Source of the DNA: a virus
DNA: 64,000 nucleotides
IMG/VR virus record: IMGVR_UViG_3300020442_002635
Location: 24,417-88,416 of that record
Reading direction: 5' to 3' (one strand)
Positions 541-29,535 of the stretch are shown here, piece by piece (within the stretch, counting starts at the first letter, position 1; every line of letters begins with the position of its first letter). The notes beneath the pieces were generated by a model. It worked only from the letters and a program-made list of their open reading frames with translations. It was not told where the DNA came from and made no database searches. The position numbers and the translations under genes were made by a program.

Positions 541-554
541 TTTTAGTTATTTAT
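541..554 (-). promoter_or_regulatory. Late promoter-like ATAAATAACTAAAA
   Basis: Same 14-mer occurs before six consecutive genes; resembles T4 TATAAATA. Confidence 0.7.
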
Positions 555-3013
555 CACTCATCTTTAAGGTAAGCATTAAACTGCATATTACTATTTTGAT
601 ATGTACTTATACCAACACTTCCAAGTTTCCATTGTGTTCCTGGAATTTGGATTGGTGATGAATATGCAATCTCACTAGTATTATTACCAACTTCTCCACC
701 ATAAGCACCAAGACCCCACGCCCACAATGTTCCATCAGTCTTCTTAGCACGACTTCCATATCTAGTACATCTAAATTCATTAGTCCACTGAGTTCCTGAA
801 ATTTGAATTGGTGATGAATAATATGCATCATTATTAAGACCCAAAGAACCGTTGGAGTTTATTCCCCATGTCCATAGGTATCCATCTCCCTTACTAGCAA
901 GACAATGGTAATTACCTGATGACACATCAGTCCATGTTCCTGGAACTTGTGTTGGTGATGAACGATTTACTACATCATTGAGACCCAAACCACCATAAGT
1001 TTGATTAATTCCCCATCCCCAAAGAGTTCCATCAGTTTTAAGTGCCATAGCTCTAGAATACCCACCTACTGCATATTTCCATTCTGTTCCTGAAATTTGA
1101 TTTGGTGATGACCTAGGAACGCTGGCGCTGCTGTTGGTCCAACCCAGGGCTCCCATGTAATCATATCCCCATGACCACAATGTTCCATCAGTTTTTGTGC
1201 AATACATTGAATCTCTTCCAACAGCCGGTACACCCCATTCTGTTCCTGGAACTTGAGTTGGTGATGAACGACTTATACCTTGATCATTAACACCATGTTT
1301 ACCATTATTATCATTTCCCCATGTCCATAATGTTCCATCAGTCTTTTTGGCTATAGTAGTTCCGTATGTTTTTAATCCACCTTCCCATTGTGTCCCTGGA
1401 ACTTGAACTGGTGATGAACGATCTACTCTATCATTTGCACCATATTCTCCATTCTGATTAAGTCCCCATGCCCAAAGAGTTCCATCTGTTTTAACTGCTG
1501 TTATACATTCCTGCATTATATCAGTATGAATATTTTTCCATTGTGTCCCTGGAACTTGAACTGGTGATGAACGTTTTATTATATCACCTTGTCCCAGTTG
1601 TCCATATAGATTATCACCCGTCATATACAAACTATATGCTGGACTAGTTAAAGCAACAGTTCCAAAATAATAACTTGAAATACCAACACTATCGCTGGTT
1701 CTCATTGTATCTTGGAATGCATTTGCAGGGAACAGTACATAATAGTTTGTACCACCAATACCAAGATCGGTTGCAGGATTAATTGTTAAAGTTGCATTGT
1801 CAATAGAGATTGTTGAACTAGATCCAACAGTAGCAACATCAAATCTTTCTGATACATTATCTTGAACAACAATTTCCCCAATCATTGCAGGGTGAATACT
1901 GCACTGATAATAATATGTTCCTGGTGTAACTCCAAAAGTATCCCAGGTTGTGGTTGCTGTTCCTTCTCCTGTTAGTGTGCCTTCACTTACACTTGCACCA
2001 CCATCACTGACCCTAATATACAGTGGGTGATCTCCGTACACACTATTGCTGAATATGAGTGTATCACCAACATTTACTGTAATAGTTACATTATTTCCAC
2101 TTACAGCACCACTTCTATCATTTCCTGCTACACCATAGAGACCAGCTCCTGGAGATGTAATTGCCTGGGTGTATGATAATTCTTCTGTTTGAATCGTAAC
2201 AATACCAACATTTGCTGAGATTGGTTTTTGAAACGTTAAAACAATATTTGTATCTGCTGCAATTCCAGTTGCACCAATACCAGGACTATAGACAAGAGGT
2301 TCTAATGCACCACCAATGTTCGTCAGTCCTGATCCATCACCACTAAATGATGTAGCTGTAATGATTCCTGTTGTATTGATACTACCTGTGGTTCCAATAC
2401 CAGCAACGACACCTTCTAAACCCGATCCATCACCATAGAATACTGATGCTGTAACAATACCAGCAGTAATACCATCAGAACTTACTGTTGCACCTGATCC
2501 AATAGTGACTCTATTTGTAGATCCATTTACTACGATACTACTAGTTCCAATGGTTGCAATACCAGTGATAGTAATGTTACCTGCAGTATCCCAATTTGGG
2601 CCTCCAGATGTTAAGTTGTAACCATATATAGATCCATCATCTACAGATGACATCTGAACTTTACCACCAAATACAAGACCATAGAAGGTCAATGCTGCAT
2701 CAGGTGCTGTTGTAAATGTAATATTACTTCCTGATGTTGTATAATCTGTTCCTGCTTCTTGTACAACACCACCAAGACTGATAATGACTTGAGCATCACT
2801 TACTGGAGTAATAGGATAACTTCCAGAAGTTAATGCAAAGGTTGTATCAGATCCATTAAAGGACCCTGATATATTATCAAGTTCCTTTATATTTTTTGGA
2901 TTTTGAGTATTGAAGTTAATCCAAACGGTACCATTCCATTGATACACATTCCCTGATGCAGTATCAACATGAATTTGGTTTACACTTGGACTTCCAGGAA
3001 ATGATAGTGCCAT
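554..3013 (-). CDS. RCC1-like 7-blade propeller fibre protein, class A, with Ig-like (Big_5-like) domain and inserted cupredoxin domain
   Basis: N-terminal MALSFP..YQWNGTVW; GIITATSFSGDGS fibre motifs; 7 repeats of KTDGTLWxWG...SSPxQxPG; H...CSIHPAM copper motif. Confidence 0.8.
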   Translation of the reverse strand: MALSFPGSPSVNQIHVDTASGNVYQWNGTVWINFNTQNPKNIKELDNISGSFNGSDTTFALTSGSYPITPVSDAQVIISLGGVVQEAGTDYTTSGSNITFTTAPDAALTFYGLVFGGKVQMSSVDDGSIYGYNLTSGGPNWDTAGNITITGIATIGTSSIVVNGSTNRVTIGSGATVSSDGITAGIVTASVFYGDGSGLEGVVAGIGTTGSINTTGIITATSFSGDGSGLTNIGGALEPLVYSPGIGATGIAADTNIVLTFQKPISANVGIVTIQTEELSYTQAITSPGAGLYGVAGNDRSGAVSGNNVTITVNVGDTLIFSNSVYGDHPLYIRVSDGGASVSEGTLTGEGTATTTWDTFGVTPGTYYYQCSIHPAMIGEIVVQDNVSERFDVATVGSSSTISIDNATLTINPATDLGIGGTNYYVLFPANAFQDTMRTSDSVGISSYYFGTVALTSPAYSLYMTGDNLYGQLGQGDIIKRSSPVQVPGTQWKNIHTDIMQECITAVKTDGTLWAWGLNQNGEYGANDRVDRSSPVQVPGTQWEGGLKTYGTTIAKKTDGTLWTWGNDNNGKHGVNDQGISRSSPTQVPGTEWGVPAVGRDSMYCTKTDGTLWSWGYDYMGALGWTNSSASVPRSSPNQISGTEWKYAVGGYSRAMALKTDGTLWGWGINQTYGGLGLNDVVNRSSPTQVPGTWTDVSSGNYHCLASKGDGYLWTWGINSNGSLGLNNDAYYSSPIQISGTQWTNEFRCTRYGSRAKKTDGTLWAWGLGAYGGEVGNNTSEIAYSSPIQIPGTQWKLGSVGISTYQNSNMQFNAYLKDE

Positions 3014-3027
3014 TATTGTCTACACTT

Positions 3028-3041
3028 TTTTAGTTATTTAT
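3028..3041 (-). promoter_or_regulatory. Late promoter-like ATAAATAACTAAAA
   Basis: Overlaps the upstream gene's stop; precedes 554..3013. Confidence 0.7.
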
Positions 3042-28354: not shown

Positions 28355-28375
28355 TGTTATTCCCGTGTTTATGAG

Positions 28376-28383
28376 TATTTATA
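28376..28383 (-). promoter_or_regulatory. T4-type late promoter TATAAATA
   Basis: Perfect consensus upstream of 27653..28354. Confidence 0.75.
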
Positions 28384-28395
28384 AGTTATTAGTAT

Positions 28396-29535
28396 TTATG
28401 AAGATTTTAAATAAATGTAATTACTTTGTCTTCCCATAGGTTTCGCGACCCATCCTGCTCCCGTAACTTGAATTGGTGCAGAACGTTGCACTTCATCACC
28501 ATTAAGCAGCTGCCCATCAGAATTAGCACCCCACGCCCACAGTGTTCCATCAGTTTTTGTACAAAAACTGCTATATATACTCATTTCTACATCAGAACTC
28601 CATTGTGTTCCTGGAAGTTGAGTTGGTGATGACCTGTTTTGATTATGACCAAGACCCAATTGACCTTGACCACCCTCTCCCCATGCATAAAGGGTTCCAT
28701 CAGTTTTGGTTGCCAAGAGTCCAGAGTAACTTCCACTAGAAACATGACTCCATTGTGTTCCTGGAAGTTGTGTTGGTGATGAACGAGCAGTATTTATAAT
28801 ATTGTGACCTAAGCCTCCATCTCTATCAAATCCCCATGTCCATAATGTTCCATCAGTTTTTATACCTGCTCTATGCCAATAACTTGATGAAATCAAACTC
28901 CATGTTCCTGGAATTTGAACTGGTGATGAACGATTTACTCTATCATTTTGACCCAAATATCCATCAGTATTTTTGCCCCATGCCCATGCTGTTCCGTCAG
29001 TTTTTATTGCCATTACAGTATTAGCACCACCTGCTACACCATAAGACCACTGTGTTCCTGGAATTTGAGTTGGTGATGAACGATCTACTTTATCATTTTG
29101 ACCTAATGCACCTTGACTATTACCTCCCCACATCCATAATGTTCCATCACTTTTGACTGCACCATTTGTTGAATAACCAGCATGAATAAAATTACTCCAC
29201 TGAGTTCCTGGAACTTGTTTTGGTGATGAATAAGGCACTGTATCATTATGACCAAGGTAAGTTGGTTCAGTATTAAAACCCCATGTCCACAAGGTTCCAT
29301 CAGTCTTTATACCTTTATTTGCCGTCGAACCCCCAGCAGCATTTAACCACTGTGTTCCTGGAACTTGAATTGGTGATGAACGATCTACTTTATCATTTTG
29401 ACCTAATTGGCCATTAGTATTTGCTCCAAGGAGATATAATTGAAAAGGACCTCCAGCCCCTCCACTATATGACCAATTACCTGCTAGATATTCGTCCCTT
29501 ACGTCTTGTAAGTCCCATACACCTTTTTGTGTCAT
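28396..29535 (-). CDS. RCC1-like 7-blade propeller protein, class C
   Basis: KGVWDL...AGNW leader; 7 repeats. Confidence 0.8.
   Translation of the reverse strand: MTQKGVWDLQDVRDEYLAGNWSYSGGAGGPFQLYLLGANTNGQLGQNDKVDRSSPIQVPGTQWLNAAGGSTANKGIKTDGTLWTWGFNTEPTYLGHNDTVPYSSPKQVPGTQWSNFIHAGYSTNGAVKSDGTLWMWGGNSQGALGQNDKVDRSSPTQIPGTQWSYGVAGGANTVMAIKTDGTAWAWGKNTDGYLGQNDRVNRSSPVQIPGTWSLISSSYWHRAGIKTDGTLWTWGFDRDGGLGHNIINTARSSPTQLPGTQWSHVSSGSYSGLLATKTDGTLYAWGEGGQGQLGLGHNQNRSSPTQLPGTQWSSDVEMSIYSSFCTKTDGTLWAWGANSDGQLLNGDEVQRSAPIQVTGAGWVAKPMGRQSNYIYLKSS

Follow-up and report, generated by a model that had tools for sequence, protein, structure and literature searches.

A probably late-expressed tail-fibre cassette of RCC1 propellers and a TPR glycosyltransferase in a T4-like cyanomyovirus: possible decoration of its own host-binding proteins

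The final 64 kb (64,000 nucleotides, positions 24,417 to 88,416; hereafter the window) of the 88-kb IMG/VR viral contig IMGVR_UViG_3300020442_002635, which is about 41% complete, contain a block of genes in which RCC1 propeller proteins are encoded together with putative protein-modifying enzymes. The block seems to be a late-expressed cassette that may both make host-binding proteins and decorate them. It comprises 27 open reading frames (ORFs) at 554-29535, all on the minus strand and separated by gaps of -29 to +51 nt, and the co-oriented 29-kb locus described by the first-pass annotation is thus borne out. All 54 RCC1 repeat matches of the 88-kb contig are confined to this block. Judged from its genes, the source virus is a T4-like cyanomyovirus with its nearest backbone in the Synechococcus phages S-SM2 and Bellamy (the gp32 proteins are about 80% identical), and the block sits within the tail-fibre module. 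Indeed, the genes at 29552-58932 encode baseplate, tail-fibre, tail-lysozyme and tail-tube proteins. A hydrophobic stretch of membrane-segment strength was found in none of the 27 block proteins, and by this absence the enzymes look soluble. In the following, genes are named by their lower coordinate, and block genes are on the minus strand.

Nine of the block genes encode RCC1-like propellers, as had been claimed. All nine exceed the Pfam cut-off (PF00415 at 94-218 bits, with a cut-off of 21.7 bits; PF25390), with 4-9 PF00415 stretches each and 6-7 motif copies per propeller. The blade consensus, with a Pro before the outer strand, an xxDG hairpin and G-x-N-x-x-GQLG, aligns with solved RCC1-fold proteins, and UVR8 (4d9s) was matched by the propeller with a phmmer E of 7.8e-32. 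The six large propeller proteins (536-902 aa) have N-terminal parts that match PHROG tail-fibre, virion-structural and baseplate-connector families (E 1e-8 to 1e-14). These N-termini are of two types, MALNFP...WNGTVW and MSQQKAQLI...VTATSFYGDGSNL. The product of 554-3013 (819 aa) joins a tail-fibre-type N-terminal part, with matches to tail-fibre and baseplate-connector PHROGs, to a 7-blade propeller (RCC1/PF25390), and its gene has a late-promoter leader. In the products of 3038-5197 (719 aa) and 5221-7374 (717 aa), an N-terminal fibre domain is followed by a Big_5 Ig-like domain and the propeller, as assigned from Pfam, PHROG and the leaders. A short fibre N-terminus, which is of the VTATSFYGDGSNL type in 7407-9017 (536 aa), precedes the propeller in that protein and in the product of 9034-10659 (541 aa), both assigned from Pfam and PHROG. 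It is also found in the 902-aa protein of 10676-13384, which has about 14 blades (PF25390 320.9 bits in 3 stretches; 14 motif copies), probably forming two propellers, and whose gene carries a late promoter of its own at 13415-13422. At its end the array has a tail-fibre-assembly-like gene at 198-533 (minus strand, 111 aa; phrog_3304 'L-shaped tail fiber protein assembly', E 2.4e-27), which is preceded by GATAAATAACTAAAAAG. Because the N-termini match fibre PHROGs and the array ends in an assembly-like gene, the six large proteins are most simply read from their sequences as fibre proteins with the propeller as the distal domain.

The three small propellers (379-387 aa) are bare propellers of 7 blades with only some 30 further residues at the N-terminus; they lack a fibre domain and are placed among the enzyme genes. 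Pfam and motif copies identify them as stand-alone propellers at 20318-21457 (379 aa, 7 blades, the last gene of the first enzyme run), 26479-27642 (387 aa) and 28396-29535 (379 aa, immediately following the fibre/baseplate genes 29552 and 30496). The first of them overlaps the collagen lysyl hydroxylase-like (PLOD-like) oxygenase gene 21454 by an ATGA, which confirms the report of a propeller coupled to this oxygenase inside the enzyme run. Between the other two lies 27653-28354, which had been left out of the earlier tally of propellers and enzymes. It encodes a 233-aa protein with no Pfam match and has a late promoter at 28376-28383. Its position between the first two small propellers is kept in marine relatives, and distant ones have a similar-sized unlabelled ORF there.

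The enzyme most closely tied to the propellers is encoded at 24020-25321 (433 aa) and combines tetratricopeptide repeats (TPR; TPR_19 E 4.4e-8) with a GT-B glycosyltransferase (GT) part; it is called TPR-GT below. Its AlphaFold2 (AF2) model (pLDDT 91.7) consists of helices at residues 2-171 and a beta/alpha region at 184-432, which can be assigned confidently, on the model, to a TPR superhelix and a two-Rossmann GT-B catalytic part. The top Foldseek matches were XcOGT, SPINDLY and human OGT, with E-values of 5e-8 to 1e-5, and they span both the TPR and the GT-B parts at an identity of about 10%. TibC (4rap_G) was also among the matches (E 7.6e-5, TM 0.39/0.43, rmsd 5.3 A over 285 columns). The modelled fold resembles the protein O-glycosyltransferases OGT and SPINDLY and may also resemble that of TibC. 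A search of PDB sequences with the TPR-GT gave nothing significant.

Seventeen enzymes had been proposed for the block: eight 2-oxoglutarate (2OG)-Fe(II) oxygenases, eight GT-like proteins and one sulfotransferase. The oxygenase tally is seven firm members and one probable member, the sulfotransferase stands, and the count of eight GT-like proteins is plausible, with three to four of them firm. Pfam alone finds six of the oxygenases (13402, 15583 as DUF6445, 16808, 18241, 22715 and 25868). The first gene of the first enzyme run, 25868-26458, encodes a prolyl-4-hydroxylase (P4H)-like enzyme of 196 aa (PF13640 58.9 bits; P4H structures PDB 3itq/5hv0, E 3e-7). Gene 13402-14163 encodes a P4H/OGFOD1-like enzyme of 253 aa (PF13640 55 bits; OGFOD1, PDB 4nhx, E 2.6e-4), and 21454-22056 encodes the collagen lysyl hydroxylase-like enzyme of 200 aa (PDB 6ax6 E 4e-10; human LH3 E 1.7e-6; phrog_61, a 2OG family in PHROG). 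Residues 17-184 of the latter cover the 2OG catalytic domain match to 6ax6, the lysyl-hydroxylase domain of mimivirus L230 (PMC5802723). These three are closest to protein lysyl/prolyl hydroxylases. The lysyl hydroxylase-like gene is restricted to close relatives and lies outside the widely conserved core. Three enzymes are of the Oxy_5 type (PF13759): 16808-17404 (198 aa, 46 bits), 18241-18783 (180 aa, 51.5 bits) and 22715-23329 (204 aa, 42 bits). The type of 18241 is part of the conserved core and adjoins TPR-GT in distant lineages. The DUF6445 protein of 15583-16200 (205 aa, PF20043 51.4 bits) was counted as a 2OG-type oxygenase. The probable member is 25318-25896 (192 aa), which has an invariant H95-x-D97 ... 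H147 and a weak AlkB match (E 0.049). Its phrog_2954 label, 'ferrochelatase', was rejected, as the family has the HxD...H triad.

The second enzyme run starts with the sulfotransferase gene 19433-20266, whose 277-aa product is of the 3'-phosphoadenosine-5'-phosphosulfate (PAPS) type (PF13469 48.7 bits; PF00685 42.7 bits). Its PDB matches were only generic cytosolic sulfotransferases (E 2e-3). Its adjacency to an RCC1 gene is conserved across relatives.

Among the remaining GT-like genes, 18780-19436 encodes a GT25 enzyme (218 aa, PF01755 41.1 bits, cut-off 24), and a GT25-like gene recurs next to RCC1/TPR-GT in many loci. A GT-A-fold protein of the conserved core is encoded at 14160-14792 (210 aa; AF2 pLDDT 82; Foldseek matches to ArnC/GtrB/KfiA, E 4e-5, TM 0.51). 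Its family carries a PF27674 tag in a big protein index and is conserved in phage S-SRM01 and in viral loci. Two paralogues with an invariant D-x-D in their family are probable GT-A enzymes: 23332-24033 (233 aa), of a core family, is 50% identical to its S-SRM01 homologue and has a protein-atlas lead to GT2 (0.96), and 22053-22718 (221 aa) was linked to it by hhalign (probability 100%) and has weak NCBIfam GT matches. The product of 17397-18269 (290 aa) is a probable GT2 enzyme, with a PF00535 score of 22.5 bits, just below the cut-off of 23.3. At the level of motifs, 16173-16811 (212 aa) encodes a probable GT-A enzyme with an invariant D70-x-D72 in the family alignment. A jackhmmer search had at first tied 16173 to oxygenase 25868, but hhalign failed to reproduce this; the link was dropped and the DxD motif preferred. 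The 250-aa core protein of 14785-15537 is a candidate WavE-like GT, with a protein-atlas lead to WavE (0.91), and is kept in the core cassette. For 14785, Pfam, NCBIfam and PDB searches were blank, and the WavE model gave no match, nor did this model match in any control genome. Nothing came of permissive Pfam and NCBIfam scans or of scanning each member of the 16173 and 14785 families with Pfam. PDB sequence searches with the profiles of 14160, 14785 and 23332/22053 and with GT25 gave nothing significant. Between the families of the locus, hhalign linked only obvious paralogues and did not place 14160, 14785, 16173, 25318 and 27653. At the nucleotide level, a megablast of the enzyme block against phage records returned one 74.6%-identical piece and nothing else.

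The block appears to be read late in infection. A TATAAATA-like element was found shortly 5' of start codons when late promoters were tested for. Of the T4-type late-promoter core ATAAATA there are 17 copies on the coding strand and two on the opposite strand. A start codon follows 14-39 nt downstream of 15 of the 17 coding-strand copies, yet such positions make up just 4.4% of the sequence. These copies stand in front of the genes for the baseplate hub and the 1948-aa fibre, gene 30496 and all six large propeller genes, as well as the assembly gene, 27653 and both enzyme runs. The late promoter of the first run, at 26476-26483, stands before 25868, and that of the second, at 20284-20290, before the sulfotransferase gene. 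The leaders of the two runs are identical at 22 of 25 positions, in agreement with the late-type promoters that had been assigned to both. Sigma-70-like sites were also searched for and were not enriched. Within both runs most genes overlap, typically by an ATGA. From the sequence, the enzymes appear to be transcribed together with structural genes, because late-promoter motifs are shared and the overlapping runs include an ATGA-coupled propeller. A comparison of the leaders of the starts at 533, 3013, 5197, 7374, 9017 and 10659 (window 533-10700) also showed a near-identical 17-nt element, [CG]ATAAATAACTAAAAA[AG], located 14-22 nt 5' of the start of the assembly gene and of those of five large propeller genes, which points to a promoter-leader module that was copied and travels with each fibre gene.

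Several features lie outside the block. Three tRNA genes (Thr-UGU, Leu-UAA and Ile-UAU; window 42074-42613, minus strand) stand between the 1948-aa fibre gene and the following structural genes. Two of them are overlapped by a plus-strand ORF of 133 aa (42349-42750), which is probably spurious. The fibre-region proteins of 31894-34563 and 34563-35897 both belong to phrog_24848. The larger one has a borderline SPRY match (26.1 bits against a cut-off of 26.3) and may be another binding module beside the cassette. The sole GT9 Pfam signal on the contig falls at contig positions 16003-16119, in a 307-aa frame about 8.3 kb before the start of the window, and at 15.7 bits it is below the cut-off.

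The association of propellers with the TPR-GT extends far beyond this virus, to dozens of other phages from aquatic habitats. A scan of IMG/VR with the TPR-GT found RCC1 genes in 49 of 56 viral loci, and the seven loci lacking them are weak matches (E 1e-8 or worse) on mostly short contigs. In the reverse scan, for which 77 loci were taken from at least 583 stretches that matched the propeller, a TPR-GT was present in 54 and lay within 100 nt in 33. Of the 23 propeller loci without a TPR-GT, only six have two flanks of more than 3 kb each. When TPR-GTs were clustered at 50% identity, 10 of 13 clusters were RCC1-linked, and one of the exceptions is an additional paralogue within the same cassette. 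Of the 50,697 phage records searched, only those of three cyanophages, the ones with close RCC1 relatives as well, contain the TPR-GT; S-SM2 and Bellamy are in neither the RCC1 nor the TPR-GT match list from these records. Of the eight best TPR-GT relatives from prokaryote genome bins, seven lie beside RCC1, and several of them also have a sulfotransferase.

The gene order is conserved as well. The single-virus genome AG-345-E08 has the same order, with proteins that are 40-70% identical. In the freshwater phage S-SRM01, whose TPR-GT is 25% identical to that of the window, the order RCC1-x-RCC1-TPR-2OG-u23332-u14785-u14160-x-RCC1-sulfotransferase follows right after the long tail fibre gene. 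Core order and adjacency are kept where the TPR-GT identity is only 24-30%. T4-like cyanophages share a larger core of RCC1, TPR-GT, oxygenase, GT-A-like and sulfotransferase genes, and the non-core enzymes vary between relatives. Many loci have other layouts, e.g., 'RCC RCC TPRGT RCC. GT25', and phage BUCT-ZZ01 has the bare pair after a tail fibre gene, with a 700-aa RCC1 protein followed by a 574-aa TPR-GT. In this phage, the gene at ON615601.1 147825-149927, annotated 'BNR repeat domain protein', encodes the RCC1 propeller protein (profile E 2e-189), and the 'hypothetical protein' of ON615601.1 146062-147777 is the TPR-GT homologue (E 1e-70). As the layouts differ so widely, the conserved unit is the propeller/TPR-GT pair itself. 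A functional link between enzymes and propellers, beyond mere neighbourhood, is supported by these sequence comparisons because the pairing is conserved at a TPR-GT identity of 24-30%.

Relatives of the TPR-GT occur in further settings. A trio of TPR-GT, RCC1 and sulfotransferase genes is found on contigs of Bdellovibrionales metagenome-assembled genomes (MAGs; L151-L153) and in Patescibacteria/Saccharibacteria bins (L148-L150). Those contigs could be prophages, mis-binned phage contigs or real cellular copies. More distant TPR-GT-like genes (21-26% identity) form tandem arrays of 4-6 paralogues without RCC1 (L155, L159, L160, L171 and L185) in alphaproteobacterial, Marinimicrobia and other bins, which may reflect a different use of this enzyme type in cells. 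Close marine relatives of the window (L012, L020 and L022) have a second TPR-GT paralogue of about 300-360 aa, e.g., at L012:18233-19306, between their 16173-like and 15583-like genes. Window gene 14785 lies just downstream of the corresponding position, after 15583.

Taken together, the cassette may make RCC1 host-binding proteins late in infection, within the tail-fibre module, and decorate them in the cytoplasm before virion assembly, a reading that is held here with about even confidence. The TPR half of the TPR-GT would capture a propeller, and its GT-B half would add the first sugar to Ser/Thr, in the way FlmG acts on flagellins or TibC on TibA. The small GT-A and GT25 enzymes could then extend the glycan, and the sulfotransferase could sulfate the product. 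Alternatively, the GT25 enzyme might glycosylate hydroxylysine formed by the lysyl hydroxylase-like oxygenase, as in collagen and mimivirus fibres. The remaining 2OG oxygenases might hydroxylate Pro/Lys of the propellers or tailor sugars. The oxygenases, an unusually large set in this marine lineage, the GT-A/GT25 enzymes and the sulfotransferase would on this reading serve as tailoring steps around the TPR-GT. The first-pass annotation had proposed that the phage modifies its own virion propellers; the gene linkage, the apparently soluble enzymes behind late promoters, the likeness to protein-modifying enzymes and the tail-fibre N-termini of the six large propeller proteins speak for this, and the acceptor motifs it named do not.

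A number of observations weigh against self-decoration. Gene linkage would also be expected if the enzymes remodelled the receptor to which the propellers bind. The full-length TM-scores of the TPR-GT model against OGTs are low (0.3-0.4), and a capsule-synthesis enzyme (8qoy) is also among its Foldseek matches. The GT41 model PF13844 had no match in a search of the contig at E <= 10, and the GT9 model PF01075 misses the TPR-GT gene, its lone contig match being weak and located elsewhere. GT25, GT2, GT-A and GT9-like folds are equally typical of lipopolysaccharide (LPS) and polysaccharide synthesis. One 735-kb phage has a u14160-like domain but no propeller within 15 kb of it. Relatives of the P4H-like oxygenase were found in 324 phage records, compared with 15 records with any RCC1 match; the oxygenases are the least specific part of the cassette. 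The co-occurrence of propellers and enzymes across phages, which the first-pass annotation had put forward as a check, largely holds, as the propeller/TPR-GT pair shows (49/56 and 54/77); the P4H-like oxygenases are also widespread where RCC1 is not matched.

The blade motifs add to these difficulties. The nine proteins contain 66 copies of [ST][ST]PxQxxG (56 of the strict SSPxQxPG) and 46 copies of K[ST]DG, and these motifs had been put forward as candidate acceptor sites. SSPxQ, however, aligns with DRPSPTQL of UVR8, and KTDG with TEDG/TSDG, which are canonical RCC1 blade positions. Moreover, distant lineages in which the cassette is kept have STPVTTFAGGTNW in place of X-Pro-Gly. Their blade reads RSTPVTTFAGGTNWKQV...IKTDGTLWTWG, and the position of SSPxQxPG is STPVTTFAGG there. 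Because distant cassette-bearing lineages carry this blade instead, conservation does not extend to the collagen-like X-Pro-Gly context. Across lineages it does extend to [ST][ST]P, to the Lys of KTDG and to G[TS]xW. In the propeller domains of the window, the two motifs hold 39% of all Lys and 72% of all Pro, a concentration that fits either a structural constraint or use as a sequon. The motifs are abundant, as claimed, but SSPxQxPG and KTDG were rejected as evidence for acceptor sites. No run of at least five GXY triplets, as expected of a collagen-like substrate, was found in the six frames of the 64-kb window. A collagen/extensin-type pathway, in which Lys/Pro of the RCC1 blades of receptor-binding proteins, a non-collagen substrate, would be hydroxylated, glycosylated and sulfated, is regarded as possible but rather unlikely. 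If it did operate, a ring of sulfated glycans at the fibre tip might set the host range or shield the adhesin, and many cyanophage '2OG oxygenase' and 'LPS' auxiliary genes would be virion-maturation genes.

As the main alternative, the enzymes could act on the host. They would alter the LPS, O-antigen or surface glycoproteins of the infected cell late in infection, to block superinfection or to keep progeny off debris, and co-evolution of receptor and receptor-binding protein would explain the linkage. This is the usual reading of GTs in the tail-fibre hypervariable regions of cyanomyophages and pelagimyophages (PMC7029224, PMC12801897), and the GT25, GT2 and GT-A folds and the WavE lead are typical of LPS enzymes. 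In addition, 2OG oxygenases are common in cyanophages with no RCC1 match, and the tandem arrays of distant TPR-GT-like genes occur without propellers in alphaproteobacterial single-amplified genomes (SAGs; AG-4xx) and other bacterial genomes. Nonetheless, none of the enzymes has a membrane segment or a signal-like N-terminus, the TPR-GT is closest to protein O-glycosyltransferases, and those oxygenases for which the matches were informative are protein Lys/Pro hydroxylases. Late-type promoters are a further point, and the minimal unit of propeller and TPR-GT within fibre operons has the layout of dedicated adhesin glycosyltransferases. These counter-points are not decisive, and host-surface remodelling is considered possible but rather unlikely.

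The cassette always stands directly after fibre/baseplate genes and has late promoters in common with them, and the neighbouring fibre proteins consist of 20-25% Ser+Thr. The enzymes might then decorate these proteins (29552, 30496 and the 1948-aa fibre) or fibre shafts, with the propellers as mere neighbours. This seems quite improbable, as the TPR-GT tracks propellers, and not other fibre genes, across very different architectures and Bdellovibrionales-assigned MAG contigs, and the T4-like phages S-SM2 and Bellamy match neither propeller nor TPR-GT. It is still less probable that the small propellers are partners of the enzymes, e.g., lectin-like adaptors, assembly factors or enzyme-holding scaffolds, and not substrates. 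Their build, with some 30 residues beyond the propeller, and their interleaving, singly, with the enzyme runs in all lineages would suit such a role. However, BUCT-ZZ01 and many other loci pair the TPR-GT with large fibre-type propeller proteins, and the blade framework is extremely uniform, unlike binding sites tuned to different ligands. Lastly, a mere sharing of a recombination-prone hypervariable island is highly improbable: such a gene dump is known from the tail-fibre region of marine T4-like phages (PMC7029224) and the non-core enzymes differ among relatives, but core order and adjacency persist even at 24-30% protein identity and across unrelated architectures.

In marine T4-like phages, GT/2OG islands are as a rule catalogued as auxiliary metabolic or host-LPS genes, and no substrate is defined for them (PMC7029224, PMC12801897). 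The conserved propeller/TPR-GT unit offers a concrete, testable substrate for at least part of these islands, namely the phage's own host-binding proteins. If self-decoration is true, virions of ocean phages would bear enzyme-built, possibly sulfated, glycans on their fibre tips, with consequences for host range, adsorption, particle stickiness and the reading of viral 'auxiliary metabolic gene' (AMG) catalogues. The question is directly testable because two cultured phages carry versions of the cassette: S-SRM01 (host Synechococcus sp. KCZYC6) and BUCT-ZZ01 (host S. elongatus PCC 7942). A literature search found no paper describing a cassette of propeller, TPR-GT, sulfotransferase and oxygenases in phage fibre modules, and nothing relevant on RCC1 together with cyanophages or tail fibres; the S-SRM01 paper does not discuss the cassette.

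Viruses that glycosylate their own surface proteins, such as mycobacteriophages and giant viruses, and dedicated adhesin glycosyltransferases are already known. Mycobacteriophage GTs reportedly glycosylate the phage's own virion proteins, on capsid and tail tube, and neither hydroxylation nor sulfation is known to be involved there (Freeman et al. 2023). The likeness would lie in phage-encoded enzymes that act on the phage's own virion proteins. The collagen-like proteins of mimivirus form surface fibres. A virus-encoded lysyl hydroxylase (L230) and GTs have been assigned to these viral proteins (PMC5802723, PMC9546862). The window resembles this system in that 21454 matches the L230 lysyl-hydroxylase domain and a GT25 gene lies 2 kb away. 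It differs in having no Gly-X-Y run, in that the enzymes are separate small proteins and the host is bacterial, and in that the lysyl hydroxylase-like gene lies outside the core.

GT41 enzymes (XcOGT 2jlb, Arabidopsis SPINDLY 8dti and human OGT) are the closest structural likeness, as top Foldseek matches over TPR and GT-B parts. However, no GT41 Pfam match was found, the TM-scores are 0.3-0.4 and the identity is about 10%. In TibC/TibA and Aah/AIDA-I, a dedicated glycosyltransferase is encoded beside a repeat-rich adhesin, which is hyperglycosylated on a repeated motif (PMC4358343). The phage TPR-GT is likewise encoded beside a repeat-rich propeller, and TibC (PDB 4rap) is among the matches of its model. 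TibC has an N-terminal beta-barrel and an iron-finger motif and forms a dodecameric ring (PMC4358343). In contrast, the N-terminal 170 residues of the phage enzyme are predicted to be all-helical TPR with no beta-barrel, and the GT9 Pfam model misses it. FlmG of Caulobacter crescentus is a soluble cytoplasmic flagellin O-glycosyltransferase with an N-terminal TPR and a C-terminal GT-B part (PMC7591256). Its TPR domain binds several paralogous structural proteins, whose modification precedes assembly, and the enzyme is expressed at a time before assembly begins (PMC7591256). The TPR-GT of the window has the same two-domain build, and it is this build, not the sequence, on which the comparison rests. 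The presumed phage substrates are RCC1 propellers and not flagellins, and the phage enzyme travels with oxygenases and a sulfotransferase.

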